In this document: positions 19,962 to 49,452 of the stretch, piece by piece | Numbering within the stretch: position 1 is the stretch's first letter | How the letters are laid out: the number at the start of each line of letters is the position of its first letter | NCBI GenBank assembly: GCA_018897295.1 | Contig: JAHILA010000014.1 | Location: forward strand, 3,390-67,389 | Direction of reading: 5' to 3' | Source of the DNA: Patescibacteria group bacterium | Lineage (GTDB): Bacteria > Patescibacteriota > Minisyncoccia > RBG-13-40-8-A | Length of the DNA: 64,000 bases | Position numbers and translations under genes: made by a program | Notes under the pieces: generated by a model | Database searches by the model: none | The model's input: the letters and a program-made list of their open reading frames with translations, nothing else | Told to the model about the DNA's origin: nothing

Positions 19962-19968
19962 CAAGAAA

Positions 19969-28862: not shown

Positions 28863-28884
28863 ATTCGAATAATATATTTATATG
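28838..28884 (-). repeat. Copy E of the recurrent cis-element (left module inverted, fused to the conserved AATAATATATTTAT end)
   Basis: gtagattcgaatattaatttgtagattcgaataatatatttat lies upstream of the 28882 ATG. Confidence 0.75.
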
Positions 28885-29940
28885 AAAATCGTAATTGCAT
28901 CAGGAATATACCCGCCGGATATTGGCGGACCAGCAACATACTCGCAAACTACTGCGCGGGAATTTACTAAACAAGGAATTAATGTCTCTTTGATTTGTTA
29001 TTCGGATAAAAAACAAGAAGATAATGAAAATTTTAAAATTGTCAGAATTTTAAGAAAAAATAAATTATTCAGATATTTATTGTATTTTTGGAACCTTTTG
29101 AAATTAGCCAGAAATTGCGATGTAATTTATGCCCAAGGTCCATTAGCAGCTGGTTTGCCAACAATGTGGGTGAGTAAAATTTTGAGAAAGAAATTTGTGA
29201 TTAAAGTTGTTGGTGATTATGCCTGGGAACAAGGGGTAAATCAATTTGGCGTTAAAGAATTAATTGAAGAATTCCAAAATAAAAAATATAATTCCAGAAT
29301 TGAAAGAATAAGAAGAATTCAGAAAAAAGTTTGTAAAAGCGCGGACAAAATTATTGTCCCGAGCGAGTTTTTAAAGAAAATAGTAAAAGGCTGGGGGATT
29401 AATGAGAATAAAATTAAGGTTATTTATAATGCTTTTTCGGGAATTGAAAATTGGAAATCGGAAATTGAAAATTTGAATTTAGATGGCGATATAATTATTT
29501 CAGCTGGTAGGCCAGAGCCATGGAAAGGATTTGATACTCTAGATGAGATAATGTCGGATTTGCTAAAAGAAAATCCGAAATTCAAATTGGTTATAGCGAC
29601 TAAATTATCTCATAATGAACTAATGGCGTATTTTAAGACAAGTATGATTTTCGTACTGAATTCCGGGTATGAAGGATTTTCGCATATCCTTTTGGAAGCA
29701 ATGGCTTGCGAATTGCCTGTGATTACAACCAATGTTTGTGGGAATCCCGAAATCGTCAGAAACAGTTATAATGGATTATTGGTTGAGTATAATAATAAAG
29801 AGCAAATAAAAAATGCTATTTTAAGATTATGGAAAGATGAAAATTTGCGAAGAAAATTTATTGAGAACGGAAAAAAGACATTAGAGAAATTTAAATTAGA
29901 AATAATACTGGAAGAAACATTAAACGTTTTAAGACCATGA
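28882..29940 (+). CDS. Glycosyltransferase family 4
   Basis: A YEGFSHILLEAMACELPVITTNVCGNPEIV motif is present. Confidence 0.8.
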   Translation: MKIVIASGIYPPDIGGPATYSQTTAREFTKQGINVSLICYSDKKQEDNENFKIVRILRKNKLFRYLLYFWNLLKLARNCDVIYAQGPLAAGLPTMWVSKILRKKFVIKVVGDYAWEQGVNQFGVKELIEEFQNKKYNSRIERIRRIQKKVCKSADKIIVPSEFLKKIVKGWGINENKIKVIYNAFSGIENWKSEIENLNLDGDIIISAGRPEPWKGFDTLDEIMSDLLKENPKFKLVIATKLSHNELMAYFKTSMIFVLNSGYEGFSHILLEAMACELPVITTNVCGNPEIVRNSYNGLLVEYNNKEQIKNAILRLWKDENLRRKFIENGKKTLEKFKLEIILEETLNVLRP

Positions 29941-31373
29941 TAGTTTTAATCCAAATTAATTATTCCAAAGACCATTCCGAAGTTACCTTGCCTTTGGGAA
30001 TTTTATCTGTGGGCAGCGCTCTGAAAAAAGCAGGGTTTGAAGTGAAACTAATTAATATTAACGAGAAAATCATTGATAAGGCAGCTGATAAAATTGTCGG
30101 GATGCATCCGGAATTTGTCGGTATTTCGGTAATGACAGGAATGCAAACCAAACACAGCGCGGAATTAAGTAAAAAAATAAAAGAAAAAAATTCACAGCTT
30201 CCGATTACCTGGGGCGGGATCCATCCGTCTCTTCTGCCTGAACAATGCCTAGAAGAAGATTATATTGATTATGTTGTTATTGGCGAAGGAGAAGTAACAA
30301 TCATAGAATTTGCTAATAAATTGAAAAATGGTGAAAGCTTTGATAATATAGCGGGTCTGGGGCACAAAAAAAACAAGAAAATAGTAATCAACCAGCCACG
30401 GGAATTCATAAAAAATCTGGATGATTACAGGTTGGATTTCAGTTTGGTTGATATTGAAAAATATCTTTTCCGGTTGAAAGGCGCAACGCGGACAATAGCT
30501 TATAAAGCAAGCCGTGGATGCACTTTTAATTGCGCTTTTTGTTATAACAGGGCATTTAATAAAAACAGATGGAGGGTTTGGTCAGTAAATTCAGTTGTTG
30601 AAGACGTCAATTTTTTAAAAAAAGAATACGGAGTTGATGCGATAAAATTTTATGATGATAATTTTTTTATTGATAGTCAAAGAGCATTGGAAATATTGGA
30701 AAAAATTGACATACCAGCGCATACAGAAATCAGAATTGATATGATTACTGATGATTTGGCGAAAAGATTAAAAGAATTAAAAGTCAGCGAACTGCTTATT
30801 GGCATAGAATCGGGCAGCAACAGGATGCTGAAATTAATCAATAAAGGTTATACAGTTGATAAAATAAAAGAAGGTGTAGAGATATTGGCGAAGCATGATC
30901 TTTACGTCACTTATTCTACAATAGTCGGATTACCCACAGAAACAAAAGAAGAATTTAATAAAACTCTTGATTTGATGTCTTGGGTTCACAAAATACATGC
31001 TAGGGCAGGATTTACGCTTGGGGCATATTTGCCCTATCCTGGCTCATTGATGTATAAATTTGCAATAGAACAAGGATTTAATCCGCCGATTAAAACAGAA
31101 GACTGGGGAAGCATCGATAGATTTAGAAAAGATTTTTTATCTCCTTGGGTTGATGCCAAAAAAGTGTGGAGAGTCAGGGAGTATTTCAAATTTTTCAGTT
31201 ATAAAATCGGATTTCTAAACAAATGGGTTGAATATAGAATCAGGAAAAAGTTTTTTAAATTCGCCATTGATATACCAGTTATTGAATATTTTGCCGGGTT
31301 GGCAATCGAGGAAAAAGGGTTAATCGGAAAATTTTTAAGAAAAATCCATTCTTTTGTTAAAAAATTCAAGTAA
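29937..31373 (+). CDS. B12-binding-domain radical SAM enzyme (class B)
   Basis: An N-terminal B12-binding Rossmann region (GISVMTG) is followed by CTFNCAFC (CxxxCxxC). It has an ATGA overlap with the upstream GT. Confidence 0.8.
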   Translation: MIVLIQINYSKDHSEVTLPLGILSVGSALKKAGFEVKLININEKIIDKAADKIVGMHPEFVGISVMTGMQTKHSAELSKKIKEKNSQLPITWGGIHPSLLPEQCLEEDYIDYVVIGEGEVTIIEFANKLKNGESFDNIAGLGHKKNKKIVINQPREFIKNLDDYRLDFSLVDIEKYLFRLKGATRTIAYKASRGCTFNCAFCYNRAFNKNRWRVWSVNSVVEDVNFLKKEYGVDAIKFYDDNFFIDSQRALEILEKIDIPAHTEIRIDMITDDLAKRLKELKVSELLIGIESGSNRMLKLINKGYTVDKIKEGVEILAKHDLYVTYSTIVGLPTETKEEFNKTLDLMSWVHKIHARAGFTLGAYLPYPGSLMYKFAIEQGFNPPIKTEDWGSIDRFRKDFLSPWVDAKKVWRVREYFKFFSYKIGFLNKWVEYRIRKKFFKFAIDIPVIEYFAGLAIEEKGLIGKFLRKIHSFVKKFK

Positions 31374-31374
31374 T

Positions 31375-32535
31375 ATGAAACTTTTAATCATTTCAGGCGA
31401 TACAGCCTTGGCTCAGGGCAAAAAAGGGCCATTTTATTATGTGTTGGAAGAATTGTCTAAATATTGGGAGAGGATTGATATTATCTGTCCCCGCCTTCGC
31501 CAACCTGCCTCGCCGGCAGGCGGGTGCTTCGGCGGGCAAGCAAAACCATGTGTTCAAAAATTTTTTAATAACGTATATGTGCATAGTTCTAATTTGCCTT
31601 TAATCCTTCAGCCGTGGTTTATTTTTAAAAAAGGAGCAGAGATTTATAAAGAGCAGAAATTTGATTTGTTCACAATTCATAGCTATCCTCCTTTTTATAA
31701 TGATATTGGCGGATTGTGGCTTTACAATAAAATAAAAACCCCTTACTTTTTAGAAGTAATGCATATCACTGGTTATCCCAAAGCAGGGAATTTTAAGGAG
31801 TGGTTTTATAAAATTTTAACTAAATATTTTATAAATTTTTTTTCAAAGAGAGCTAAAGCAATTAGAGTGATTAATCAGATACAAACACCAGAATTTTTGA
31901 AAAAAGCAGGGGTTGATGAGAAAAAGATAAAAATTGCACCGGCATTTTATATCGATTTTGAAGTATTTAAACCCAATGCCGCAGAAAAAAAATATGACTT
32001 GGTTTTTTCCGGTCGATTAGCGAAGAATAAAGGTATATTTTTATTACTGAAAGCAGTGAGAAGTCTCAAATCACAGATTCCAAACATCAAGCTTGTAATT
32101 ATTGGAAGTGGGCCGTTGGAGAAAAGGATCAAGAAATATATTATAAAGAATAAATTAGAAAATAATGTGGAATTTGTCGGTTGGTTGCCGACCATAAATG
32201 ATTTGGCGAGAATTTATAATCAATCAAAAATTTTAGTTATGCCGTCATTTAACGAAGGTGGACCGAGAGTAACCTTAGAAGCAATGGCTTGTAAAGTGCC
32301 GGTTATTACAAGCAGAGTCGGGGTGATGCTGGATATAATTAAGCATGGTGAAAATGGAATATTTATCAAATGGAATGCCGAGGATATTGCTGAGAAGATA
32401 ATTTTATTATTAAAGGACGACAATCTAAGGCAGAAGATAGCTGAAAACGGCTGCCAAACAATCCAACGATTTGAAAGAAAAAAAGTAATTGAAAATTATG
32501 CAAAAATATATCAAGCTTTGCTACGTTCTGCCTGA
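31375..32535 (+). CDS. Glycosyltransferase family 4 carrying an in-frame GC-rich element insertion
   Basis: A NEGGPRVTLEAMACKVPVITSRVGVMLDI motif is present. Start is set at ATG 31375 immediately after the upstream stop; the track 31354 start overlaps the upstream gene. Confidence 0.75.
   Translation: MKLLIISGDTALAQGKKGPFYYVLEELSKYWERIDIICPRLRQPASPAGGCFGGQAKPCVQKFFNNVYVHSSNLPLILQPWFIFKKGAEIYKEQKFDLFTIHSYPPFYNDIGGLWLYNKIKTPYFLEVMHITGYPKAGNFKEWFYKILTKYFINFFSKRAKAIRVINQIQTPEFLKKAGVDEKKIKIAPAFYIDFEVFKPNAAEKKYDLVFSGRLAKNKGIFLLLKAVRSLKSQIPNIKLVIIGSGPLEKRIKKYIIKNKLENNVEFVGWLPTINDLARIYNQSKILVMPSFNEGGPRVTLEAMACKVPVITSRVGVMLDIIKHGENGIFIKWNAEDIAEKIILLLKDDNLRQKIAENGCQTIQRFERKKVIENYAKIYQALLRSA
31489..31548 (+). 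repeat. GC-rich palindromic element of about 57 bp, in-frame within the GT4 gene. It is translated as [20 protein letters not shown].
   Basis: ccccgccttcgccaacctgcctcgccggcaggcgggtgcttcggcgggcaagc is about 93 % identical to 62401-62457. Confidence 0.85.
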
Positions 32536-33610
32536 TTATAATTCCAAAACAGACAGCCATTTTTTCCATCTGTATGAATTTTTGGAAAAGGCGTCTAAAA
32601 AACTGGACATATTTTTAATCGTAGAAAGAAGTAGTAGCAACAAAGAAGATATCGGGAGTGTTATGCCGGATATAAAATTTATTTATATCCAAAAATTTAA
32701 GTTTATCCCTTTTCGCTTTATTGAGAGTTTTATTGCTGTTTTAATCGCCAGAATTAAAGGATATAAAAACTTTTATACCCATTATTGTTATATCGGCGGA
32801 ACCAACGCCGCAATTATATCCAGGGTTTTCGGCGGGAAGTCGTATTATTGGAATTGTGCCATGAATTGGTTGTTTAAGAAAAAAGATTCTTCAAAAATAG
32901 GATATGAATTGTGCTTGAAATGGTCTCATTATCTGGTAACCGGCAGCGCGGGGATGAAGAAAGGATATATTGAACATTATCATCTGAGTCCGGAAAGAGT
33001 TAAAGTAATGCCTAATTGGATAAACCTGGAAAGATTTAAACCGGGAAACTTCCAGCCCAAGGCTGGTCCGCCTCGGGCGGAAAAGACTTTATTATTTATT
33101 CATTGGCTTTCAAAAAGGAAGGGCGCGGATATGATTGTGCCGATAGCAAAACATTTATCCCAAATACTAAATACAAAATACAAAATATTGGTTGCAGGCA
33201 ATGGTCCGTATGGAGATGATTTATTGAAAGAAATAGAGGAAAACAAATTAAAAAAAATTATCGAAGTTTTGGGAGCCATTCCTAATGAAAATATAATTAA
33301 GTATTACGAAAAGACGGATATATTTATCATGCCGTCTATGGAAGAAGGATTTCCGAGAGTGTTGTTGGAAGCAATGGCAATGGGCGTTCCTTATATTGCT
33401 TCCGATATCGGAGCAGTCAGGGAAATTTCTTCGGAAATCGCTCAAAGATTTCTAGTCAGGTCAGGAGACGCCGAAATGTTTGCCCATAAAATAGAAAACT
33501 TAATATCGGACGAAAGGGTATACGAAGATTTCAGAAAAGAAGAATTGCAAAAAATCAAGGAATATTCAATAGATAAAGTGATTGATATATTTGTAAAATT
33601 ATTTAAATGA
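32489..33610 (+). CDS. Glycosyltransferase family 4
   Basis: An EEGFPRVLLEAMAMGVPYIASDIGAVREI motif is present. The start is either 32489 or 32498, and the gene overlaps the upstream gene. Confidence 0.75.
   Translation: MKIMQKYIKLCYVLPDYNSKTDSHFFHLYEFLEKASKKLDIFLIVERSSSNKEDIGSVMPDIKFIYIQKFKFIPFRFIESFIAVLIARIKGYKNFYTHYCYIGGTNAAIISRVFGGKSYYWNCAMNWLFKKKDSSKIGYELCLKWSHYLVTGSAGMKKGYIEHYHLSPERVKVMPNWINLERFKPGNFQPKAGPPRAEKTLLFIHWLSKRKGADMIVPIAKHLSQILNTKYKILVAGNGPYGDDLLKEIEENKLKKIIEVLGAIPNENIIKYYEKTDIFIMPSMEEGFPRVLLEAMAMGVPYIASDIGAVREISSEIAQRFLVRSGDAEMFAHKIENLISDERVYEDFRKEELQKIKEYSIDKVIDIFVKLFK
33051..33081 (+). repeat. Possible degenerate GC-rich element copy in the GT4 gene
   Basis: cccaaggctggtccgcctcgggcgg compares with ccaacctgcctcgccggcaggcggg. 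Confidence 0.3.
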
Positions 33611-35031
33611 AATTAATTCTTACAACTAGTCCTAGAGCAGAAGGCGACTTGGAAAGAAAGGGTCTGCCGTTTTTGGGCATTGGTTATATTGCCGGCTATA
33701 TGGAAAAATTCAGCCATCATCAGGTTGAGATTTTTGATGCTCATACTTATGGTTTGACCGCGTCTGAAGCAGCTGGGAAAATACTGGCTAAAAATCCGGA
33801 TGTTGTTGGTATACATTCTATTACCGACAACAGATTTAAGGCGATTGCTTTGGCGAAGGGACTAAAAAAGGAAAATAAAAATGTAATTGTTTTAATGGGT
33901 GGCCCGCATTTTTCTTTGACAGCGAAAAATGCTTTGGAATTGGTTCCAGAAATAGATTATATTATCAGAGGCGAGGGTGAAAAAGCAATTGTTCAATTAT
34001 TAGATGTTTTGGAAAATAAAGGGGACATTTCAAAAGTTTCAGGATTGGCTTATAGAGATAAAAATGGCCAGATTATAGAAAAACCATTAACTGATTTGAT
34101 AATGAACTTAGATGAGCTTCCAATGCCCGCTTGGCACCTATTTGACCTTAAAGAGTATAACAAGCCCATAGATGGCACAAACGTTCGTTCTGTAGGCGTT
34201 TTAAGCGCCAGGGGATGCCCAAATGTATGCGTCTACTGCGCTAACGCCAGATCAGTACTGAGATTAAGAAGTCCGAAAAATTTCATTGACGAGGTTGAGT
34301 ATTTGCATAAGACATACGGCTATCACGGTTTTGATTTTTGGGACGACACTTTAACCATGGTGAAAAGCCACGTTACGGCTGTTTGTGAAGAAATTATCAA
34401 AAGGAAACTGGATATAATTTGGTATGCCCGGGCAAGGGTTAATACCGTAGACAAAGAATTACTGCAATTAATGGGAAAAGCAGGATGCATCAGAATCAGT
34501 TTTGGTGTTGAATCTGGGAGTCCGAGAATCATAAAAATTATTAAGAAAAACATCACCGTTGAACAAGTGTTGAATGCCGTGCGATGGTCATCGGAAGTCG
34601 GCATGGTAGTGGTTACCAATTTTATGGTTAATTTGCCGGAAGAAACATTAGATGATTTAAAACAAACAATAGGCCTGATGAAAGAATTGAGCAAGATTAA
34701 AAATTCTTATCCCGCTTACGGCTTCACGGTTATTTATCCAGGCACGGAGCTGGAATTGATGGCAAAAGAACGAGGATTGATGCCGAAAGATTTTTCCTGG
34801 AACAGCCCGTACCAGTCGCCAAAATATAAAGTTGCCGGAACCGATCCATCTTTGTTTTATATGGAATGGCCTGGTGCTGAATTGGAGAAAATAAAAGCAA
34901 TTATGGTAAGAGGCTTGGGAATTAAGGGCAATGTTTTTAAAAAAGGATTTAATAAGCTAAGAAAAATAAAATCATTCGGCGAATTGAAAGAATTGGTTAA
35001 AACGGGAATTGATTATTTTTTTAAATTTTAA
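33607..35031 (+). CDS. B12-binding-domain radical SAM enzyme
   Basis: It has a B12-binding N-domain and CPNVCVYC. It is paralogous to the 29937, 36784, 39804, 46357 and 47746 genes. Confidence 0.8.
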   Translation: MKLILTTSPRAEGDLERKGLPFLGIGYIAGYMEKFSHHQVEIFDAHTYGLTASEAAGKILAKNPDVVGIHSITDNRFKAIALAKGLKKENKNVIVLMGGPHFSLTAKNALELVPEIDYIIRGEGEKAIVQLLDVLENKGDISKVSGLAYRDKNGQIIEKPLTDLIMNLDELPMPAWHLFDLKEYNKPIDGTNVRSVGVLSARGCPNVCVYCANARSVLRLRSPKNFIDEVEYLHKTYGYHGFDFWDDTLTMVKSHVTAVCEEIIKRKLDIIWYARARVNTVDKELLQLMGKAGCIRISFGVESGSPRIIKIIKKNITVEQVLNAVRWSSEVGMVVVTNFMVNLPEETLDDLKQTIGLMKELSKIKNSYPAYGFTVIYPGTELELMAKERGLMPKDFSWNSPYQSPKYKVAGTDPSLFYMEWPGAELEKIKAIMVRGLGIKGNVFKKGFNKLRKIKSFGELKELVKTGIDYFFKF

Positions 35032-35037
35032 ATAAAA

Positions 35038-35682
35038 ATGTCCAAAGAAACTCTTAATAAAATTTATCACTATCATCACACAGCCGAAAAACGAGAAGAT
35101 TTCGTTTCTTTTGGAATAATTAAAGGAAAGTTATTTTCCGAATGGATTGGTCGAGAGAAAAAGGTTTTGGATTTGGGTTGTAGAGATGGTGCTTTAACAA
35201 AATATTTTATTAAAGGAAACGAGGTTTTGGGCGTAGACGTGGATTGCGAAGCTTTAAAAAGATGCGAAGAGAAACTTAATATAAGAACAAAATGGCTTGA
35301 TTTAAATGATGATTGTGATTTATCCAAAGAGTTTGATGTTGTAGTGGCCAGTGAGATATTGGAGCATCTCTATTTTCCCGAAAAGGTTTTAGGAAGAATT
35401 AAAAACATTCTTAAAGAAGATGGATTATTTATTGGTTCGGTTCCCAATGCTTTTAGTTTGAAAAATCGTTTTAGGATTCTTTTTGGCAGGAAAAAAGGAA
35501 CACCATTAAACGATCCTGTACATATTAATCATTTTTCTTATAAAGAACTTAAACAAATTTTAAACAAAGAGTTTAAACAGGTTAGAATTTATCCCGTTAT
35601 TCAGAAAAAGTATAGTTGGCTGGCAAAAATTTTTCCATCGTTAATTTCTTATCAATTGATTTTTAAATGCAAAAATAAATGA
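35038..35682 (+). CDS. Class I SAM-dependent methyltransferase
   Basis: Motif I reads VLDLGCRDGALTKYF and a motif II/III pattern follows. Confidence 0.75.
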   Translation: MSKETLNKIYHYHHTAEKREDFVSFGIIKGKLFSEWIGREKKVLDLGCRDGALTKYFIKGNEVLGVDVDCEALKRCEEKLNIRTKWLDLNDDCDLSKEFDVVVASEILEHLYFPEKVLGRIKNILKEDGLFIGSVPNAFSLKNRFRILFGRKKGTPLNDPVHINHFSYKELKQILNKEFKQVRIYPVIQKKYSWLAKIFPSLISYQLIFKCKNK

Positions 35683-41285: not shown

Positions 41286-41321
41286 CATAATAAAGATTTT
41301 AAAATCAGGAATAAAATTATC

Positions 41322-41738
41322 GTGGCCATTGCATCAAATACGAAAAAGGATTATATTATAAATATAATGTACAAAAATATATTATTGACCATATTAGTAG
41401 CATTATTTACGATATTTAGTCAGACATTTTTAAAAAAAGGTCTTAAAATAATCGGCGAATTAAAAATAGCTGGTTTTCATGATTTGGGTGTAATTATTTT
41501 AAAATTAATTCAGAACAAGTTTATCATTATTGGTGTACTTATTGCGGCTGGCGGCGCTTTTTTATGGTTGATGGTTATTTCAAAAATGGATCTCACCACA
41601 GCTTTTCCTATAAGTGGAGCTATATTTTTTGTTTTGCTTTTTTTATTCTCCTGGATTTTTCTAGGAGAAACAATAACGGTTGTTAAAGTTTTGGGCGTTC
41701 TTTTAATACTTTCAGGTGCCTACATAATTTTTAAATAA
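41322..41738 (+). CDS. Small 4-TM DMT/SMR-like membrane protein (ArnE/ArnF-like). It may be a flippase subunit for polyprenyl-phosphate sugars.
   Basis: About 120-138 aa with four predicted TM helices and an EamA/SMR-like pattern. The true start may be an internal Met near 41367. Confidence 0.4.
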   Translation: MAIASNTKKDYIINIMYKNILLTILVALFTIFSQTFLKKGLKIIGELKIAGFHDLGVIILKLIQNKFIIIGVLIAAGGAFLWLMVISKMDLTTAFPISGAIFFVLLFLFSWIFLGETITVVKVLGVLLILSGAYIIFK

Positions 41739-42758: not shown

Positions 42759-42762
42759 AGAT

Positions 42763-43641
42763 ATGGTTTCTATTTTCGAAAAATTAAAACCAGATGTTAT
42801 TGTTTGCCCGTTTTGCAAAGAGTTGCTTATAAAGAAGGAAAAATTTTTATTCTGCTTAAAATGTAATAAAGAATATCCAATAATAAATAACGTTCCATAT
42901 TTTTTGATTGAATCCAACAAGTCAGAATATTCTTTGTCTAGTAGAAATTTTGAATTCCGAAGTCGTATTAGGAATTCGAGAATTTTTAAAATATTGAAAT
43001 ATATTTTTGGAGCTGATTTTGTACCCTATGATCCTTTGAAAAAATTTCATAGTATTTTTTTGGGCACAAAAGATGACAGATTTATTGTGCTGAATTTAGG
43101 ATCCGGCTCGAAAAATTACGGAAGGAGGGTTGTAAATCTTGACGTTGAGGCATTTCCTAATATTGATATTGTGGCAGATGGTTGTTGTCTTCCTTTTGCC
43201 GCTGATACCTTTGATGCGGTTATAGCCGAGGCAGTTATTGAGCATGTGAAGTATCCCGATAAATTTACCGCCGAAATTAAAAGGGTTTTGAAAAAAGGCG
43301 GGGCGATTTTTATTGTAGCGCCATTTGTTCATCCATTTCACAGTTACCCGAATGATTATCAAAGATATAGCATTGAAGGATTAAGAGTTCTTTTTGAAGA
43401 TTTTAAAGAGATAGAAAGCGGAGTTTATCGAGGTCCCAGCGTTGCATTTATTGGCATTTTCAGCGATTATCTTGCTGGAATATTTTCATTTTTGTGCCAT
43501 CCCATTCATCTTCTCATGAAGTCGATTTTTACTATTTTAATATTCCCAATAAAATTTTTAGACATCATTTTGGCTAAAGGCAAAAAAAGCTACATACTGG
43601 CGCACTCGGTATATTATATTGGAAAAAAGGTAAATGAATAA
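42763..43641 (+). CDS. Class I SAM-dependent methyltransferase with an N-terminal Trm112-like zinc ribbon
   Basis: It has CPFC...CLKC followed by VLNLGSGSKNYG and VLKKGGAIFIVAP. Confidence 0.65.
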   Translation: MVSIFEKLKPDVIVCPFCKELLIKKEKFLFCLKCNKEYPIINNVPYFLIESNKSEYSLSSRNFEFRSRIRNSRIFKILKYIFGADFVPYDPLKKFHSIFLGTKDDRFIVLNLGSGSKNYGRRVVNLDVEAFPNIDIVADGCCLPFAADTFDAVIAEAVIEHVKYPDKFTAEIKRVLKKGGAIFIVAPFVHPFHSYPNDYQRYSIEGLRVLFEDFKEIESGVYRGPSVAFIGIFSDYLAGIFSFLCHPIHLLMKSIFTILIFPIKFLDIILAKGKKSYILAHSVYYIGKKVNE

Positions 43642-43643
43642 CA

Positions 43644-45731
43644 ATGAAAATATTTAACTTATTGTTTGAATCTAGGATAAAACAAATAAATTCGCATCTC
43701 TTAGTTGATAAACCTTTATTTTTAATTAAGACAGCTTATCGCTATTTTTTAAAATTTGTTTTTAAGAAAGATTTACTCAGAGGGGCGGTTTTCGCATCTT
43801 CCTACCAATGCAATTTTCATTGTTCGCATTGTTACGCATTGAAATTCAGGAACGCCGGGATTAAAGAGCCGGAGTTTTATGAAAAAGCAGCAATAATCAA
43901 GGAATGTCTTAAGGCTGGCGTGATGGCATTTGATTTTGTGGGTGGAGAAATAGGAATAACGCCAGATTTTATAAATTTACTGAAAATTTGTAGGCCGAAG
44001 AGAACTTTTATTTCTTTGGCATCCAACGCCTTTGCCCTTACGAAAGAAAAAGTGAAGGATTTTAAAAAAGCCGGCGTTGATCAGATCAGTATATCAATAG
44101 ACGGCGGGACAGAACAAGAGCACGATGAATTCAGGAGACAGCCCGGATCGTTTAGAAAATGCTTCGAAGCTCTTGATATAATAAGAGAAGAAGGAATGAA
44201 CCCGGTTATTATTACTTGTGTTGCTCGGAGCGGTACAAGAAAAAAACCCTTTCGTGATTTAGTTGATTATGCCATTAAAACGCGAACGCAATTGATTTTT
44301 ACGCCTCTAATTCCATTTGGCGAGTTGGAAGGTAATTTAGACATTCTTTGTGACGAAGAAGATCTTGATTACATGAAAGAAATGCATAAAAAATACCCTT
44401 TTTTAACGAGAGATAACTATGAAAATATGGGAGAGATAGGTTGTCCGGGAGCTAAGCAGGTTATCTATGTATCTGAATATGGCGACGTGATGCCCTGTCC
44501 TTTCTTACATATCTCTTTTGGCAATATAATGACCGAATCCCTCGTTGATATTAGAGAACAAATGCTAAAGTTGCCGGAATTAAAACGATACAATCCTCGG
44601 TGTTTGGCCGGCGAGGAAACTTCATTTATTAAGAATCATTTGGCAAAACTTGCAAATATCGATAGTTATCCGATAACGGCAGAAAAAGTTTTTTCTGAAA
44701 ATAAGGATCTTTTTAGAGCCAAATCTTTTCATAAAAATATTGCAAAAATAGACCGTCCATGTCCTTTATGCGGTTCCTGGGAAAGAGAAGTAATTTCTAG
44801 TGGACGCGAACATGAATTTAAAGATACAACTCAAGACCTTTTTTTTGTAGTGAAATGTAAAAATTGCGATTTAGTCTATCTTAATCCAAGGCCAGATAAA
44901 AAAGAATTAGACATAATTTATCCAAAAAATTATTGTTGTCACAATGAACAGTATTCGGAAATAAATACAAAAAGAAATTTTTTAGTGCGCCTCAAGAATT
45001 ATTTAAATCATTGTCTGGGATTTCCGAGTAGAATCAGGCAAGTTTTAAAACTTATTCCGAAACAAAGTCAAATAAAAATTCTTGATGTTGGTTGCGGTAG
45101 CGGGGGAGCATTAGATGTTTTTAGGGAGAGTTGTCGGGGAGCACTAACGACCGGAATTGATTTCGATGAAAGGGCAATTAATATTACAGCGGCGAAGGGT
45201 CATTCTGTAATAAAGGCGAAAATTGAGGATGTCGAACTAGCGAAGGAAAATTTTGACATAATTTATTCAAGTAATGTCATTGAGCATGTTTCGGATCCCT
45301 TTCAAATGTTTCAAAAAGTAGCCTTTGCCCTCAAACCTTCAGGAATTTTTTTCTGCGAGACCCCGGACTTTGATTCCGTCGATTCCAAATTATTTGCCAA
45401 ATCTGGCCACTGGGGTGGATTCCATTTTCCGAGGCACTGGACTTTTTTTACGCCTAAGACTTTGGAAAAAATAGCGGATAAAGCCGGCTTGAAGTTGGAA
45501 AAAATTAAACATAGTCCGGTCCCAATTTTTTGGATATGGTCTATGCACTCGCTTTTATATCGGGGGCTGAATCGAAAAAAGCTTGCTGATAGACTATTCC
45601 CCCTAATAGAAAACAGGCAGAATTTTTTTATTTCTTTTTTGAATAAAATTATTTTCACGCTTATTGATATTATATTAGAAAAAACGGTTGGTCGAACAGG
45701 GGTAATGTGTGTTGTTTTTCGAAAAAAATAA
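43644..45731 (+). CDS. Fusion protein: radical SAM (CNFHCSHC) with a SPASM-like auxiliary cluster region, a zinc ribbon and a class I SAM methyltransferase
   Basis: An N-terminal CxxxCxxC is followed by a Cys-rich GCPGAK...PCPFLH segment. The C-terminal part has CPLCG...KCKNC and ILDVGCGSGGALDVF. Confidence 0.65.
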   Translation: MKIFNLLFESRIKQINSHLLVDKPLFLIKTAYRYFLKFVFKKDLLRGAVFASSYQCNFHCSHCYALKFRNAGIKEPEFYEKAAIIKECLKAGVMAFDFVGGEIGITPDFINLLKICRPKRTFISLASNAFALTKEKVKDFKKAGVDQISISIDGGTEQEHDEFRRQPGSFRKCFEALDIIREEGMNPVIITCVARSGTRKKPFRDLVDYAIKTRTQLIFTPLIPFGELEGNLDILCDEEDLDYMKEMHKKYPFLTRDNYENMGEIGCPGAKQVIYVSEYGDVMPCPFLHISFGNIMTESLVDIREQMLKLPELKRYNPRCLAGEETSFIKNHLAKLANIDSYPITAEKVFSENKDLFRAKSFHKNIAKIDRPCPLCGSWEREVISSGREHEFKDTTQDLFFVVKCKNCDLVYLNPRPDKKELDIIYPKNYCCHNEQYSEINTKRNFLVRLKNYLNHCLGFPSRIRQVLKLIPKQSQIKILDVGCGSGGALDVFRESCRGALTTGIDFDERAINITAAKGHSVIKAKIEDVELAKENFDIIYSSNVIEHVSDPFQMFQKVAFALKPSGIFFCETPDFDSVDSKLFAKSGHWGGFHFPRHWTFFTPKTLEKIADKAGLKLEKIKHSPVPIFWIWSMHSLLYRGLNRKKLADRLFPLIENRQNFFISFLNKIIFTLIDIILEKTVGRTGVMCVVFRKK

Positions 45732-46360
45732 TGCCTATCGATTATAAAAAAACTTCATCGCTTCTTTATCAAAGAGACCAATACCGAAAAGGTGGCATTG
45801 GTCGTTGGTATTGGGATTGGCGTGATAAAAAAATACTCGATTTTATTAAAAAAAAACATCAGGATATTTTGGATATCGGTTGCGGTGAAGGTATCACGCT
45901 TGAGAAATTAGTAAACAAATACAAAGATAAAAATATTTTAGGCGTTGATGTAATTGTTGAGAATGTTGATATCTGCAAAAAATACAACCTACCAGTCGTT
46001 CTGGGCGACGTTTATGGTTTAAAAATAAAAGAAGAATCGATTGACCTGTGTATCCTTTCAGAGGTGATTGAACATTTGGACAACGTAGGTTTGGCGCTCG
46101 AAAATATAAAGAGGATTTTGAGACCCGGCGGAGATTTAATCATCGTGTTTCCCAATGACACTTTTTTTAAAATAGCCAGAATACTTTTTTTAAAATTCAA
46201 AGAAGCATTTGCCGATTACGGCCATATTAATCATTTTTCGCCATGGAGTATCGAAAAGATTTTGAGTAGGGCGGGTTTCGAGATTATCAAAATCAAAAAT
46301 ACTCCGTTTGGGTTTTGGATTTTAAGTTTGCATTGCTTAGTCTTAGCGAGGAAAAAATGA
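45731..46360 (+). CDS. Class I SAM-dependent methyltransferase
   Basis: An ILDIGCGEGITLEKL motif is present. Start is probably the ATG overlapping the upstream stop (TAATG); the track ORF begins at 45707. Confidence 0.7.
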   Translation: MPIDYKKTSSLLYQRDQYRKGGIGRWYWDWRDKKILDFIKKKHQDILDIGCGEGITLEKLVNKYKDKNILGVDVIVENVDICKKYNLPVVLGDVYGLKIKEESIDLCILSEVIEHLDNVGLALENIKRILRPGGDLIIVFPNDTFFKIARILFLKFKEAFADYGHINHFSPWSIEKILSRAGFEIIKIKNTPFGFWILSLHCLVLARKK

Positions 46361-47736
46361 AAAAAGTTTTATTTATAAGGGCGATAGATCCCATAAGCGA
46401 AGTGGAAACGAGGTATCCGGGTTTAGGATTGGCTTATTTGGCAAGTGCTTTGCGTTCTCATTTTGGAGACGATTATTTTGATTTTCGGATAATAGAGAAT
46501 GGAAATGAGTCTGAAGTAAAAAGACAGATTTCTCAATTTGAGCCGAATATCGTGGGCATAAGTTCGGTTACGCAAAATTTTAATCTGGCAAAAGAATACG
46601 CGGTTTTCGCGCATAATAGAAATATCCCAGTTATAATGGGCGGGATTCATATTTCAATGTTGCCGCAGTCCTTGCCCAACGAAGCGGTTTTGGGCTGTAT
46701 TGGGGAAGGAGAACGGACGATCGTTGATCTTTTTTGTCTGTTCGAAAAAGCGGGCGAGTTTTCCAAAAAAGAATTAAAAAAAATAAAAGGAATCGTGTAT
46801 CGCGATGATGGCGGGCGACTGGTCGTGAATGAACCAGCGCCACTTATAAGTAATTTAGACGAGATAAAGATGTCGGCGCGCGATTTGCTTGAGATAAAAA
46901 AACATTCTTACATTTTTTCTTCGCGAGGATGTCCGTATAGATGCACTTTTTGCGCGTCATCTCGATTTTGGAATAAGGTTCGGTTGTTTTCGGCAGAATA
47001 TGTGGTTGAGGAAATTAAAGAGCTTTATGAACGATACGGCGTTAGGATGATTAGTTTTTTTGACGACCTTTTTATTATTAGTCCGCAGCGGTTGGAAGAA
47101 ATTGTCGTTTTGTTGGAGAAAGAGGGGTTGTTGGGGAAAATAAAATTTACCGGTTCGTGTCGGGCTAATCTGGTTAATAAAGGAGTAGCTAAAATCCTAA
47201 ATAAATTAGGTGTTGTCTCGGTCGGTCTTGGTTTGGAGTCGGGCAACGAGAGGGTGTTGCGTTATTTGAAAGGAGAGACTGCCTCGGTCGAATTCAATAA
47301 AAATGCCGTGGCTATACTAAAAAAATACGGGATTACGGTTAATGCTTCTTTTGTTATTGGTTCGCCCGATGAAACTGAAGAAGAAATGATGGAAACTTAT
47401 CGTTTTATAAAAAATAATCCTTTGGATTTGGTTGATGTTTATGTTTTGACACCACTGCCCGGTACGCCGATCTGGGAATATGCTAAAACCAGAAATTTGG
47501 TTTCGGATGATATGGATTGGTCGAAGTTTAACGTCAATTTTGAAGTCGGCCATAAAGAAGCGATTATTCTTTCAGAATTATATAATGCTGATCAGCTTTA
47601 CCGGATTTATAAAAGATTCAGGCGATTGCGTTTGTATTTAAATGCAAAAAACATTTGGCACAGTCCGTTTTTAATGGATTTACCTAAATATGTAATAAAG
47701 AAAGTTTTTGAGCGGCTAAAATCATTTTTAGGATAG
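46357..47736 (+). CDS. B12-binding-domain radical SAM enzyme
   Basis: It has a B12-binding N-domain and SSRGCPYRCTFCAS. Start is set at MKKVLFI (46357) overlapping the upstream stop; the track start 46315 is an upstream extension. Confidence 0.8.
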   Translation: MKKVLFIRAIDPISEVETRYPGLGLAYLASALRSHFGDDYFDFRIIENGNESEVKRQISQFEPNIVGISSVTQNFNLAKEYAVFAHNRNIPVIMGGIHISMLPQSLPNEAVLGCIGEGERTIVDLFCLFEKAGEFSKKELKKIKGIVYRDDGGRLVVNEPAPLISNLDEIKMSARDLLEIKKHSYIFSSRGCPYRCTFCASSRFWNKVRLFSAEYVVEEIKELYERYGVRMISFFDDLFIISPQRLEEIVVLLEKEGLLGKIKFTGSCRANLVNKGVAKILNKLGVVSVGLGLESGNERVLRYLKGETASVEFNKNAVAILKKYGITVNASFVIGSPDETEEEMMETYRFIKNNPLDLVDVYVLTPLPGTPIWEYAKTRNLVSDDMDWSKFNVNFEVGHKEAIILSELYNADQLYRIYKRFRRLRLYLNAKNIWHSPFLMDLPKYVIKKVFERLKSFLG

Positions 47737-47745
47737 TTTATCCAA

Positions 47746-49116
47746 TTAGATTTTTGTTAGGATTTTCAGCCCTCGTAGATTGTATAATAAATCCTTCAAA
47801 GATTTTATTGAACTTATCCTCTTCCAGATGTATTTCGGTCTGAAATAAAATGATCTATAAGCAGTTTTTAGATAGCGACGAAGCTTGTTAATTGAAACAT
47901 CGGATAAGCTGATAAGTGGTTTTGCGCTTAGAGCATAAAAACTTTTTGACCAATCGTTATTAATCTTTCTTGATTGTTTTGCTATTTCATAAAGTTCTGT
48001 TCCGGGGTAGGCGGTAGCAATAGCAAACTGGACATAGTCTAAATTTAATTCTTTACTAAATTTAATGGTTCGTTTAATTTCCTCCTCGCTTTCGGTGGGT
48101 ATGCCGAGTATAAAGTATCCCAACATTTGAATATTAACCCCTTTTGTTATTTCGACAGTATTTTTTATTTGTTCAATAGTAGTGCCTTTTTTTAGAAAAT
48201 TTAGGACTCTCTGGCTTCCAGATTCAATACCATAAGCAATTAAATAGCAGCCGGCTTTTTTCATTATTTTGAGTAGTTCTTTGTCGACTAAATTAACTCG
48301 GGTTTCGCACTTCCATTGAATTTTTATTTTATTCTCAATGAGTAGTTGGCAGATTTTTAATACTCGCTTCCTGTCTAAGGTAAATGTGTCGTCGTAAAAT
48401 TGGAGTTCTTTAATGCCATATTTATTTTTAAGTAATTCTATTTCCGAAATAATATTTTCTGGACTTCGGGGTCTAAATTTGGTACCAGTAATTGGCTTAG
48501 AGCAGTAAATGCAATGGTGAGGACATCCTCGACTAGTAAAAATAGTGGTGGCTGGTTTTTTAAGACTATTTAAATATTTAGAATATCTTTTTATGTTTAA
48601 TAATTCTCGGGCCGGGAAGGGTAATTCGTCTAAGTTTTCAATAAAATCAGCGTCAGGGGTATTGATAATTTGTTTATTTCTTCGGAAGGTTAACCCAGGC
48701 AGATTCTCGGGATTTTGTTTTTTTAAGATATATTCAACCAGTTTTGGAAATCTTATTTCTCCCTCTCCTCGAAAAACATAATCAATGCTTTCGGTTTTTT
48801 CTAGCACTTCATTTGGTTTAAGAGTGGCATGGGCTCCGCCTAAAATAATAATTTTTTCAGGGAATTTTTTTTTAATTATTTCTGCCAGGTAAAGAGCTTT
48901 TTTTATATTTGGCGTCACAGCAGTTAAGCCAATAATAGAAGCATTTTCTTTTTTTATAAATTTTAATAGTTTTTCTTCTGAAAATTTTTCTAACAAATAA
49001 TCAAGAATAATAACTCGATAATTTAATTTTTGGAGGGTAGCTGCCAAATAAGCCAGTCCCAGCGGTGGACAGACAAGAGACTTTTTACCTGGCGGATTAA
49101 TGAGAAGAATAGTCAT
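47746..49116 (-). CDS. B12-binding-domain radical SAM enzyme
   Basis: It has TSRGCPHHCIYCSK. It converges on the 46357 gene with only a 9-nt gap. Confidence 0.8.
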   Translation of the reverse strand: MTILLINPPGKKSLVCPPLGLAYLAATLQKLNYRVIILDYLLEKFSEEKLLKFIKKENASIIGLTAVTPNIKKALYLAEIIKKKFPEKIIILGGAHATLKPNEVLEKTESIDYVFRGEGEIRFPKLVEYILKKQNPENLPGLTFRRNKQIINTPDADFIENLDELPFPARELLNIKRYSKYLNSLKKPATTIFTSRGCPHHCIYCSKPITGTKFRPRSPENIISEIELLKNKYGIKELQFYDDTFTLDRKRVLKICQLLIENKIKIQWKCETRVNLVDKELLKIMKKAGCYLIAYGIESGSQRVLNFLKKGTTIEQIKNTVEITKGVNIQMLGYFILGIPTESEEEIKRTIKFSKELNLDYVQFAIATAYPGTELYEIAKQSRKINNDWSKSFYALSAKPLISLSDVSINKLRRYLKTAYRSFYFRPKYIWKRISSIKSLKDLLYNLRGLKILTKI

Positions 49117-49448: not shown

Positions 49449-49452
49449 ATTT

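Follow-up and report, generated by a model that had tools for sequence, protein, structure and literature searches.

During moenomycin biosynthesis, the class-B radical SAM (rSAM) enzyme MoeK5 modifies an oligosaccharide carried on a lipid, and HpnJ acts together with two other hopanoid enzymes, the glycosyltransferase HpnI and the deacetylase HpnK. Of the class-B enzymes characterised to date, the majority are methylases (review PMC12931638). The class also includes non-methylating members, for instance OxsB, BchE and HpnJ. MgmA/QCMT is a methylase; OxsB is a non-methylating sugar enzyme that performs a ring contraction, and its chemistry uses cobalamin; AprD4, likewise a non-methylating sugar enzyme, acts as a diol dehydratase and does not bind cobalamin. 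Here, we analysed a 64,000-nucleotide stretch (the window) of a MAG from an uncultured Patescibacteria/CPR bacterium, which contains a ~21-kb operon with glycosyltransferases (GTs), six predicted B12-binding rSAMs (B12-rSAMs) and methyltransferases (MTases). The initial annotation regarded this architecture as highly unusual and was aware of no characterised glycan pathway that shares it. Likewise, no published description of a pathway with this GT4/B12-rSAM/MTase architecture was found in the literature, and the arrangement is unusual compared with characterised pathways, but it is recurrent among the sampled Patescibacteria MAGs.

ORF calls and Pfam searches reproduced exactly the gene order proposed for the + strand. 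The proposed operon start at 28882 was not retained, as the co-directional unit probably begins upstream at 26671 or 27118, with genes for a PDDEXK_3 protein, a GT4 and a DUF6580 protein preceding 28882. With the likeliest ATG starts, 10 of the 16 junctions overlap (4 nt of the ATGA type in six cases, and 1, 17, 20 and 38 nt once each); the others comprise five gaps of 0–6 nt and one gap of 36–81 nt, between B12_4 and the EamA-like gene. In addition, consensus terminator-like sites showed no enrichment (11 vs. 13.4 ± 3.7 in shuffles). Closely spaced genes and terminator-like sites that are no more frequent than in shuffles fit a single long transcription unit. GT and B12-rSAM genes do alternate, but only approximately, and a strict one-to-one interleaving was not observed.

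The paralogues on the + strand are B12_1 (29937–31373; PF02310 78.7 bits, PF04055 97.7 bits), B12_2 (33607–35031; 65.7 and 84.2), B12_3 (36784–38118; 72 and 89.2), B12_4 (39804–41285; 50.2 and 62.2) and B12_5 (46357–47736; 47.9 and 99.7), and B12_6 (47746–49116; 83.3 and 94.7) lies convergently to B12_5 on the − strand. All six exceed the gathering cut-offs of both families (47.9–83.3 bits against 32.1 for PF02310 and 62–100 bits against 29.5 for PF04055), as the B12-rSAM assignment predicts, although a PF02310 match alone is not proof of cobalamin binding. Moreover, the expected Cys triad, CxxxCxxC, is invariant in all six. Their pairwise identity is 27–36%, and they are therefore old paralogues rather than recent tandem copies. 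In the profile built from the six paralogues, the N-terminal domain aligns with the B12 domains of OxsB, TokK, TsrM and CysS. The AF2 model of B12_1 (pLDDT 88.8) matched MgmA, OxsB, TsrM, AprD4, CysS and TokK over its full length, covering the solved cobalamin-dependent rSAMs over both domains, and its top fold match was the MCR glutamine methylase 9CCB.

None of the six paralogues reached an NCBIfam equivalog cut-off. The best sub-threshold scores were obtained for BchE, HpnJ, ApyD and PhpK, with B12_6 scoring highest on HpnJ (276.7 bits, cut-off 577.6). AprD4, MgmA/QCMT, OxsB and TokK are the closest relatives of solved structure; of these, AprD4 gave the best sequence match to the six-paralogue profile and also to B12_6, with the similarity confined to the rSAM core (profile positions 165–400). 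The earlier designation of these enzymes as C-methyltransferases was thus not borne out at the family level. Since equivalog matches are lacking and the closest solved relatives include the non-methylating AprD4 and OxsB, C-methylation by the six paralogues is plausible but unproven.

The GT4 genes on the + strand comprise GT4_0 of the conserved core block (27118–28278; PF00534 153.9 bits, PF13439 69 bits), with orthologues of 70–76% identity in the related loci L004, L007, L008 and L023; GT4_a (28882–29940; PF00534 119.7, PF13439 72), which overlaps B12_1 by a 4-nt ATGA; GT4_b (31375–32535; PF00534 166) and GT4_c (32498–33610; PF00534 124), with close-relative orthologues of 66–67% and 60–62% identity, respectively; GT4_d (35679–36803; PF00534 88.7), which has relatives of 35–40% identity in most CPR loci; and the GT4-type GT4_e (38115–39188; PF00534 63.9), in which the C-terminal domain alone was detected. 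GT2_a (41739–42758, +; PF00535 108 bits) is of the chain-elongating type, with chondroitin synthase, heparosan synthase and GalT1 as best PDB matches and a homologue of 48% identity in L075. Class-I SAM MTases are encoded on the + strand by MT_1 (35038–35682; PF13489 67.8 bits), MT_2 (39172–39807; a weak PF08241 match with 26.2 bits, cut-off 21.2), MT_3 (42763–43641; PF08241 48.4) and MT_4 (45731–46360; PF13489 75.3). An rSAM/SPASM-MTase fusion (43644–45731, +; PF04055 69, PF13186 25.4, PF13489 83.5 bits) belongs to a rare family with 24 matches, the best non-self identity being 57%. The small multi-pass membrane protein at 41322–41738 (+; five hydrophobic segments) resembles EamA, TMEM234 and ArnF below threshold (25, 24.5 and 28.7 bits, the last on NF002816 with a cut-off of 99); its former label, ArnE-like, is not supported at family level, and the protein may serve to flip a lipid-linked sugar.

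A membrane protein of the DUF6580 family is encoded 19 nt upstream of GT4_a (28326–28862, +; PF20221 175.7 bits). Its AF2 model (pLDDT 92) has an ECF S-component fold, and Foldseek placed BtuM with cobalamin on top, followed by the ECF S-components RibU, FolT, ThiT and PanT; the family profile gave a single PDB match, the 182-aa chain of ECF-CbrT 6FNP (E 0.012). In 80 metagenome loci, 16 same-strand cobalamin riboswitches were found upstream of DUF6580 genes, with DUF4430 in between in nine of ten tested cases and PduO in the tenth, and the riboswitch–DUF4430–DUF6580 arrangement is likewise present in L073 and L074. These loci link the DUF6580 family to the B12 regulon. In the window, neither an ECF energising module nor a DUF4430 partner was found, and the protein is a probable S-component-like cobalamin importer. 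Real B12 use is supported by this fold together with the riboswitch-associated relatives. Cobalamin synthesis is not known in CPR bacteria.

Conservation of the GT/B12-rSAM/MTase alternation across related genomes was confirmed by its recurrence in 27 sampled CPR loci, a typical string being WzyC GT4(−) GT4 GT4 B12 B12 GT4 GT4 MT GT4 B12. In related loci, B12 ORFs lie directly next to GT4 (53 cases), B12 (26), GT2 (7), MT (4) and PMT2 (3), and the window holds the most B12-rSAM copies among the sampled loci, six. Across CPR, no other gene of the locus is as well conserved as B12_1 (60–85% identity), which has 60–64% identity in distant CPR lineages vs. 23–43% for the flanking GT4s. B12_1 matches more than 120 known protein clusters at 60–84% identity; those with a source name are all Patescibacteria, Parcubacteria, Paceibacterota or merely "bacterium", and in five clusters it is fused to a class-I MTase. 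B12_2 has orthologues of 82–85% identity in L004, L007, L008 and L010, and B12_3 has no close orthologue in the sampled flanks. A 47%-GC genome shares the cassette that makes up the 3′ half, at 45–55% identity, and its locus (L075) contains a full-length B12_5 homologue (51% identity). Both L075 and the P0252 contig carry the rSAM/SPASM-MTase cassette, and on the latter the shared cassette adjoins a Wzm/Wzt(Wzt_C) exporter of the O-polysaccharide type. Both the domain content of the locus and its conservation are evident from these comparisons, and the array is composite, with a CPR-wide core as its 5′ half and a shared cassette as its 3′ half.

Beyond B12_6, the − strand encodes a small DUF2304 membrane protein (49113–49448; PF10066 84.1 bits; three hydrophobic segments) and GT2_b (49453–50154; PF00535 99 bits), a polyprenyl-phosphate sugar synthase of the DPMS/ArnC-like type whose best PDB matches are dolichol-P-mannose synthase 5MLZ (2.4e-19) and ArnC. 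B12_6 is linked to both genes. Both L075 and the P0252 contig likewise have DUF2304 adjoining the GT2, and a DPMS-like GT2 and a B12_6-like gene, sometimes with PMT_2, are adjacent in L005/6, L015, L019, L020, L022 and L075. The next gene (50220–51659, +; PF13231 58.1 bits; nine hydrophobic segments) was previously read as GT39 protein O-glycosylation machinery, but only PMT_2, a general GT-C family, was detected; such an enzyme would act outside the membrane, with a lipid-P-sugar as its donor. The adjacent lipid-linked assembly genes were all recovered by Pfam: a Wzx-type flippase (52457–53707, −; PF01943 70.8 bits), the initiating phosphoglycosyl transferase (PGT) Bac_transf (53707–55077, −; PF02397 221 bits) and a Wzy_C (O-antigen ligase/polymerase-like) membrane protein with C-terminal TPRs (55158–57392, +; PF04932 77.3 bits plus TPR families; twelve hydrophobic segments), whose gene borders many of the related loci. 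MT_5, a class-I SAM MTase, lies at 51582–52451 (−; PF13489 75.1 bits).

On the upstream side, a conserved block belonging to this glycan locus (18594–26578; Pfam; L004 orthologues of 52–64% identity) encodes a NosD/beta-helix protein, a GT4, a polysaccharide deacetylase, a FemAB/GNAT-like acyltransferase and a DegT aminotransferase (−) in the same order as in L004, L023 and L072, and also two signal-peptide proteins unique to this genome among the compared loci. NDP-sugar modification genes are few in the window, DegT being the only one. The PD-(D/E)XK_3 family gene (26671–27069, +; PF13366 81 bits), the first co-directional gene past the divergent DegT, is missing between DegT(−) and GT4 in L004, L007 and L008, and is probably an insertion. 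Several signal-peptide proteins are encoded around the glycan locus, which also has genes for large secreted proteins and a type IV pilus cluster in its vicinity.

The same locus and pathway could instead rely on other radical chemistry, most class-B-like enzymes acting on lipid- or nucleotide-linked sugars by deoxygenation/dehydration (as AprD4), ring contraction (as OxsB and HpnJ), oxidation or epimerisation; the sugars would thereby be diversified despite a very small nucleotide-sugar repertoire, with methyl groups coming solely from the six class-I MTase domains. We consider this rather unlikely, though it deserves serious attention. The top rank of AprD4, the position of OxsB among the best matches in both sequence and fold, the HpnJ score of B12_6 beside a polysaccharide deacetylase, the solitary DegT, and class-I MTases numerous enough to explain methylation all agree with it. 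However, the AprD4 likeness is restricted to the rSAM core while, in the N-terminal domain, the alignment is to genuine cobalamin-binding proteins, and characterised class-B enzymes are mostly methylases. Cobalamin-free chemistry is disfavoured because a B12-regulon transporter gene lies within the operon, although OxsB-like chemistry uses cobalamin too.

A glycolipid natural product akin to the moenomycin phosphoglycolipids, either released or bound to the membrane and perhaps directed against or placed on a host cell, seems very unlikely: MoeK5 is listed among the sugar-related class-B methylases and the 3′ cassette is shared horizontally with a non-CPR genome, as secondary-metabolite cassettes often are, but PGT, Wzx, Wzy_C-TPR and the GT-C enzyme are hallmarks of envelope glycan export and attachment, the core is kept in many CPR classes beside large signal-peptide proteins, and the cassette adjoins an O-polysaccharide-type exporter on the P0252 contig. 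Least probable of all is that the rSAMs target a polypeptide (for example a surface protein, pilin or RiPP-like precursor), which the GTs then glycosylate. The sub-threshold likeness to the protein/peptide-modifying ApyD and the RiPP C-methyltransferase family TIGR03975, the 9CCB fold match, and the nearby secreted proteins and pilus cluster are consistent with this possibility. Against it, ORF and Pfam searches of the array detected neither a short precursor-like gene nor genes for RiPP recognition, leader peptidases or transporters, B12 genes sit between GTs in every related locus, and B12_6-type genes pair with a polyprenyl-P-sugar synthase.

We therefore favour, with reasonable though far from complete confidence, a polyprenyl-phosphate-linked surface glycan locus of the Wzx/Wzy_C type with extensive radical and methyl tailoring, in which the class-B enzymes mostly transfer methyl groups. 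The substrates, step order, methyltransferase chemistry and acceptor that we infer are as follows. The Bac_transf PGT would prime the lipid carrier, and seven GT4s and one elongating GT2 would lengthen the oligosaccharide at the cytoplasmic face. On these lipid-linked intermediates, individual sugars would be tailored by the six class-B rSAMs, one rSAM/SPASM enzyme and six class-I MTase domains. The per-sugar assembly line envisaged initially does not follow from the gene layout, as gene order does not equal reaction order and, in the 3′ half, a lone GT2 is accompanied by three MTases and two rSAMs. By analogy with GenK, Fom3 and TokK, most class-B enzymes may methylate unactivated sugar carbons, the 5′-deoxyadenosyl radical abstracting a hydrogen and methyl-cobalamin donating CH3, and the class-I MTases may add O- or N-methyl groups; cobalamin would be imported via the co-transcribed DUF6580 protein. 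In a side route, the DPMS/ArnC-like GT2 would make a polyprenyl-P-monosaccharide, B12_6 would modify it, DUF2304 or the EamA-like protein would flip it, and the PMT_2 GT-C enzyme would add the sugar outside the cell. Finally, Wzx would flip the tailored product, and the Wzy_C-TPR protein would transfer or polymerise it onto a surface acceptor.

The gene order reported for positions 28882–49116 in the initial annotation was reproduced without exception by the ORF map and Pfam scans. The array opens with GT4, B12-binding radical SAM (B12-rSAM), GT4, GT4, B12-rSAM, methyltransferase (MTase), GT4, B12-rSAM, GT4, MTase, and B12-rSAM genes, and continues with a small EamA/ArnF-like membrane protein, GT2, MTase, a 695-aa radical SAM (rSAM)–SPASM–MTase fusion, MTase, B12-rSAM, and a convergent B12-rSAM; the six B12-rSAM paralogues are numbered B12_1 to B12_6 in this order. 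Nearly all junctions had been described as overlapping by 1–20 nt. Measured from the likeliest ATG starts, 10 of the 16 plus-strand junctions overlap, and nine of them agree with that description (six ATGA and others of 1, 17, and 20 nt); the tenth overlaps by 38 nt, and the rest are gaps, five of 0–6 nt and one of 36–81 nt. The co-directional unit probably starts 5′ of 28882, after a divergent DegT aminotransferase gene, and would then include a PDDEXK_3 gene (26671), a GT4 gene (27118), and a DUF6580 gene (28326), with gaps of 48, 47, and 19 nt, respectively. A consensus scan, which has little power, found no excess of terminator-like sites (11 vs. 13.4 ± 3.7 in shuffles), and its count of promoter-like sites (94 vs. 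80.8 ± 8.6 in shuffles) was uninformative. The stop codons of the convergent B12_5 and B12_6 genes are 9 nt apart (47736–47746), and the 3′ ends of the MTase gene MT_5 (minus strand) and the PMT_2 gene (plus strand) overlap by 78 nt (51582–51659), so that both convergent pairs leave scarcely any space for terminators. The GC content of the window is 30–38%, and a protein identical to B12_1 is encoded in NCBI assembly GCA_018895295.1 (contig JAHION010000002.1, 'Patescibacteria group bacterium').

The assignment of the six paralogues to the B12-binding radical SAM proteins was borne out by Pfam. All six passed the gathering thresholds of both PF02310 (47.9–83.3 bits, cut-off 32.1) and PF04055 (62–100 bits, cut-off 29.5), and the failure of these matches, named beforehand as grounds for rejecting the proposal, was not seen. 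Alignment of the six shows an invariant CxxxCxxC triad and an invariant GGxH motif, and C195, C199, and C202 (B12_1 numbering) are unchanged in the six paralogues and 27 orthologues. A profile of the six matched the PDB sequences of AprD4 within the rSAM core only, of OxsB with its B12 domain included, of TsrM in the B12 domain, and of the MCR glutamine methylase 9CCB, TokK, and CysS. The AlphaFold2 model, made for B12_1 only (pLDDT 88.8), matched the same solved set across both domains, with the two-domain fold of MgmA (9CCB; E 1e-20, TM 0.66/0.75), OxsB, TsrM, CysS, and TokK. At the level of domains and fold, the paralogues are therefore class-B enzymes. None of them reached a curated NCBIfam cut-off (BchE, HpnJ, HpnR, PhpK, BzaD, ApyD, MCR-Gln methylase, TIGR04295, and others); the best sub-threshold scores were 146–277 bits against cut-offs of 481–750 for the best-scoring models BchE, HpnJ, and ApyD, and PhpK was also among the best sub-threshold matches. 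Placement in named subfamilies was rejected because the scores were far under these cut-offs. Pairwise identity among the paralogues is only 27–36%, indicating that they are ancient rather than recent copies; recent tandem duplication was rejected as their origin on this ground and because they fall into separate deep clades. The fusion gene at 43644–45731 was identified as radical SAM/SPASM (PF04055, 69 bits; PF13186, 25.4 bits, cut-off 21.5) with a C-terminal MTase (PF13489, 83.5 bits), and it reached no NCBIfam equivalog.

The alternation of glycosyltransferase, B12-rSAM, and methyltransferase genes is kept in related genomes, and the non-conservation that had been named beforehand as refuting was not observed. 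More than 120 protein clusters match B12_1 at 60–84% identity, and all those with a source name come from Patescibacteria, Parcubacteria, or Paceibacterota MAGs or are labelled just 'bacterium'. Neighbourhoods were classified for three homologues and for 21 additional Patescibacteria loci identified by scanning genomes. The gene string 'WzyC GT4(-) GT4 GT4 B12 B12 GT4 GT4 MT GT4 B12' recurs in CPR loci, and the direct neighbours of 59 B12-rSAM ORFs were GT4 (53), B12-rSAM (26), GT2 (7), MTase (4), and PMT_2 (3). Four close relatives (loci L004, L007, L008, and L023; B12_1 77–78% and B12_2 82–85% identical) retain the block DegT(-)-GT4-GT4-B12_1-GT4-GT4-B12_2, and in distant CPR lineages B12_1 is still 60–64% identical, with flanking GT4s at 23–43%. 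A neighbour-joining tree resolved deep orthogroups, namely a B12_1 clade, a B12_2 clade, B12_6-like clades that adjoin GT2 genes, and a further clade that lies directly 5′ of B12_1 elsewhere and has no member in the window. Related loci carry one to four B12-rSAM genes within ±10 kb; the six in 20 kb of the window are the highest number seen.

Five B12_1 clusters (P0073, P0104, P0111, P0116, and P0120) are fused to a C-terminal class-I methyltransferase, and these Rosetta-stone proteins tie the radical enzyme to an MTase. The fused orthologues, 60–64% identical to B12_1, are 712–721 aa long and occur in other Patescibacteria; one such gene lies at 10001–12166 of locus L005. One Portnoybacteria contig (MHMT01000003.1, loci L008 and L010) has a pair of B12_1-type genes separated by about 13 kb, with identities of 78% and 73% to B12_1 of the window, indicating that the core gene was duplicated within one genome. 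Locus L072 (6537–9151), on a 626-kb contig of a close relative, encodes a single 746-aa fusion of the two GT4s that follow DUF6580, and its glycan locus contains a bAvd-like gene and is missing B12_1; bAvd is an accessory protein of diversity-generating retroelements. The non-CPR relatives from the genome scan (L028–L071, at most 34% identity) were lone rSAMs without glycosyltransferases and were set aside as uninformative on function, with one exception. This locus, L030 from a Clostridia MAG, is a run of seven consecutive B12-rSAM paralogues in whose flanking ORFs blast detected no glycosyltransferase, and is a different expansion from that of the window.

The array is composite. Its 5′ part is a CPR-wide core, and the genes at 41739–50154 have counterparts of 32–55% identity at 6540–15211 of L075, a locus which is probably not CPR, because its GC content is 47%. 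These comprise MT_3 (32%), the fusion (55%), GT2_a (48%), MT_4 (45%), B12_5 (51% over the full length), a B12_6-like gene (35%), and a GT2_b-like gene (32%) adjoining DUF2304. An apparent lack of the B12 domain in the L075 orthologue of B12_5 (373 aa) was dismissed as an artefact of a late gene-start call, since tblastn aligned residues 3–456. The contig carrying P0252 has the same gene families in similar order, compared as families rather than by identity, followed by a Wzm/Wzt(Wzt_C) exporter. The shared genes mark the 3′ part (~41.7–50.2 kb) as a transferable tailoring cassette around a single GT2, and its recurrence in L075 and beside Wzm/Wzt suggests horizontal transfer. The fusion family is rare (24 hits, best non-self identity 57%). 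The cassette would suit a heavily modified, perhaps terminal, sugar.

The DUF6580 gene (PF20221; 28326–28862, 178 aa), 19 nt 5′ of the first GT4 gene of the array, encodes a small membrane protein whose predicted fold is that of an ECF transporter S-component. A single-sequence PDB search gave a spurious match only and was replaced by family-profile and fold searches. The 25-member family profile had one PDB match, the 182-aa membrane chain of 6FNP (the vitamin B12 transporter ECF–CbrT; E 0.012), which was taken as CbrT from its size alone. The AlphaFold model (pLDDT 92) had BtuM–cyanocobalamin as its top Foldseek match (probability 0.98), and the other top matches were all S-components (4HUQ_S, TM 0.66/0.71; RibU, FolT, ThiT, and PanT); E-values were weak, with probabilities of 0.9–1.0 and TM-scores up to 0.71. 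In two loci (L073, 4829–6513, and L074, 3729–6513), a cobalamin riboswitch precedes a DUF4430-(...)-DUF6580 series. An Rfam scan of 80 DUF6580 metagenome loci (L076–L155, 339 kb) found 17 cobalamin-clan riboswitches, all 17 on the DUF6580 strand and 16 upstream of the gene, and otherwise two tRNAs only. Of 10 tested genes between riboswitch and DUF6580, nine carry DUF4430 and one is a PduO-type adenosyltransferase. DUF4430 is the C-terminal domain of transcobalamin-type binders (PMC4350170). For the family, this genomic context is decisive and places DUF6580 in the cobalamin regulon; the riboswitch–DUF4430–DUF6580 operon of many genomes is a candidate vitamin B12 uptake system.

The DUF6580 gene of the window has no DUF4430 partner and is preceded by no riboswitch (the Rfam scan of the window gave no match), and no ECF module was found within the 64 kb. 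The glycan operon seems to have co-opted this gene; DUF6580 also lies beside B12-rSAM and glycosyltransferase genes in L005, L072, and L073. Like CbrT of ECF–CbrT and the solitary BtuM, DUF6580 is a membrane protein with several helices, a length of only about 180 aa, and a predicted S-component fold, and its context in the B12 regulon, PduO included, recalls the nrdJ–cbrS–cbrT–pduO cluster (PMC5997447). In contrast to CbrT, to which its sequence likeness is marginal, this predicted transporter family has DUF4430 instead of CbrS as partner and no ECF module nearby. A full-text literature search, limited in coverage, found no mention of DUF6580 or PF20221.

The array is embedded in glycan assembly genes. 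Downstream lie DUF2304, a DPMS/ArnC-like GT2, a PMT_2 GT-C enzyme, and a further MTase, followed by a Wzx flippase, a Bac_transf phosphoglycosyl transferase (PGT), and a Wzy_C protein with TPRs. The PGT (PF02397, 221 bits), flippase (PF01943, 70.8 bits), and Wzy/ligase-type protein (PF04932, 77.3 bits) that define a Wzx/Wzy system are thus all present. Two more specific labels given earlier did not hold at family level. The gene at 41322–41738, called ArnE-like, scored below the cut-offs of ArnF NF002816 (28.7 vs. 99 bits), EamA (25 vs. 28.2), and TMEM234 (24.5 vs. 30.1), and the gene at 50220–51659, assigned to GT39, matched only PF13231 PMT_2 (58.1 bits), a general GT-C family. The GT39 protein O-mannosyltransferase architecture is PMT (PF02366) with MIR domains.

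Upstream of the array are a NosD/beta-helix protein, a GT4, a polysaccharide deacetylase, a FemAB/GNAT-like protein, and the DegT aminotransferase. Beyond these, the upstream region encodes an ECF sigma factor, DUF5667, a 1213-aa protein with no match in Pfam, ClpB, and the components of a type IV pilus. A single N-terminal hydrophobic segment marks the 1213-aa protein, and likewise several other proteins around the locus that belong to no family, as candidate secreted or surface proteins. The 1213-aa gene (14750–18391), predicted to encode a signal peptide, follows the ECF sigma factor and DUF5667 genes (13296–14714) and is kept directly upstream of the glycan locus, with 66% identity in L004 and proteins of comparable length in L003 and L072; it is possibly a surface-layer protein or a glycosylation target. 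Two further family-less signal-peptide proteins of 332 and 430 aa (22034–24368) and the PD-(D/E)XK_3 gene (26671–27069) are absent from the collinear L004 and L072, indicating strain-specific insertions in the locus. The pilus set (2–7258) encodes one PilB-like and one PilT-like ATPase, PilC, and a prepilin peptidase, and includes several short ORFs that resemble pilins and carry an N_methyl motif. At 8182–8841, a 219-aa protein has a PaaX-central/Cas2-like domain, with no CRISPR or cas context seen.

From the domain content, we infer a pathway in which the PGT would prime polyprenyl phosphate and the GT4s and GT2_a would elongate the chain at the cytoplasmic face, the only place where rSAM enzymes could work. 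The class-B rSAMs and MTases would tailor the sugars of the lipid-linked intermediates, after which Wzx would flip the finished product and the Wzy_C–TPR protein would ligate or polymerise it. In common with Wzx/Wzy loci for O-antigen, capsule, or S-layer glycans, the window has a Bac_transf PGT, Wzx, a Wzy_C-domain protein, and many GT4/GT2 genes. It differs in the TPR tail of its Wzy_C protein and in having, by Pfam, no outer-membrane export genes and no Wzz/PCP chain-length regulator, in a scan that covered nearly all window ORFs of at least 100 aa, except six short ORFs upstream of 13 kb. We know of no O-antigen or capsule locus with a comparable load of rSAM and MTase tailoring enzymes. 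Mycobacterial MMP/MGLP clusters likewise alternate sugar addition and methylation, with glycosyltransferases and SAM methyltransferases yielding a heavily methylated glycan; these glycans, however, are cytoplasmic and O-methylated only, and the clusters have no radical SAM enzymes or lipid-linked export genes.

A side branch may consist of GT2_b, B12_6, DUF2304 or the EamA-like protein, and PMT_2, an arrangement supported by the repeated occurrence of GT2, a B12_6-like gene, and PMT_2 side by side. Arn/Gtr-type systems combine a GT2 that synthesises a polyprenyl-P-sugar with a small flippase and a GT-C transferase, and include a modification of the lipid-bound sugar such as that by ArnD. GT2_b matches DPMS and ArnC, and DUF2304, the EamA/ArnF-like protein, and the PMT_2 GT-C enzyme adjoin. 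B12_6 is placed where the on-lipid modifier would be and could perform that step, but it is a class-B rSAM instead of a deformylase.

The matches of the class-B enzymes to TokK, CysS, and QCMT were no better than those to OxsB and AprD4, in both sequence and fold, and no sequence motif known to us distinguishes methylases from the remaining members of class B. The main rival to C-methylation is non-methylating radical chemistry on sugars. Among solved structures, AprD4 and OxsB rank with the best matches by sequence and by fold, and HpnJ is the best NCBIfam model for B12_6, yet with 276.7 bits against a cut-off of 577.6. AprD4 is the radical SAM diol dehydratase of apramycin biosynthesis, OxsB carries out the oxetanocin ring contraction on a nucleotide sugar ring, and HpnJ forms the hopanoid cyclitol ether on a lipid-bound glucosamine. 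The 6FD2 complex with paromamine gives an aminoglycoside pseudodisaccharide as the AprD4 substrate. A 2026 review lists OxsB, BchE, and HpnJ as non-methylating or of unknown function, and places AprD4 and ArsL-like proteins in the same similarity network without cobalamin binding (PMC12931638). The likeness of the paralogues to AprD4, however, is limited to the rSAM core, and unlike the settings of HpnJ and OxsB, the window contains no hopanoid or nucleoside-antibiotic genes. Cobalamin use by the paralogues is backed indirectly by the co-located DUF6580, a transporter-like member of a B12-regulon family. Given cobalamin use, C-methylation is the favoured reaction for most class-B enzymes of the locus, at somewhat better than even odds.

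The closest analogues are GenK, GenD1/GntE, Fms7, and MoeK5, Csp3-methyltransferases acting on carbohydrates or antibiotics (PMC12931638). The paralogues have in common with them the B12-binding Rossmann domain, the rSAM core, CxxxCxxC, the fold of solved class-B enzymes as predicted for B12_1, and coding beside glycosyltransferases and class-I MTases. A glycolipid natural product is a minor alternative to an envelope glycan. GenK-type pathways belong to aminoglycoside or phosphoglycolipid secondary metabolism, mainly of actinomycetes, and have one or two such enzymes, whereas the window has six very divergent paralogues, none reaching an equivalog model, in a CPR envelope glycan locus of Wzx/Wzy_C type. 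Protein or peptide substrates are likewise a minor alternative.

Each part of the locus is of a known kind, and its genes already carry generic NCBI annotation; the combination is new, namely up to six class-B rSAMs and a candidate B12 importer within one predicted surface-glycan locus that is conserved across Patescibacteria. The full-text search, which was limited in coverage, turned up no paper describing loci of this type. Tentatively, and at somewhat less than even chances, we propose that a lineage-specific radiation of cobalamin-dependent rSAMs acting on lipid-linked sugars, with the B12_1 family (60–85% conserved) as founder, builds Patescibacteria surface glycans, and that the surface of these B12-auxotrophic episymbionts depends on B12 scavenged through DUF4430–DUF6580 uptake. 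If true, both the substrate class and the cellular role would be new for class-B rSAMs, and DUF4430–DUF6580 would be a previously unrecognised uptake system.

Its value for enzymology lies in a number of deep, as yet uncharacterised clades of class-B rSAMs with a genomic context that predicts lipid-linked sugars as substrates, and in natural Rosetta-stone fusions of rSAMs to MTases. For vitamin biology, the locus would tie B12 scavenging to envelope biogenesis, and the widespread riboswitch-controlled DUF4430–DUF6580 pair is a candidate B12 transporter. Patescibacteria, which make up a large share of bacterial diversity, have roughly 1-Mb genomes and a lifestyle of attachment to host cells, and to our knowledge their surface chemistry is essentially undescribed. 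Their conserved outlay of more than 20 kb on glycosyltransferases, up to seven radical SAM enzymes, MTases, and a candidate B12 importer suggests that the surface glycan is modified in unusual ways, and such a glycan may bear on host recognition or phage evasion.
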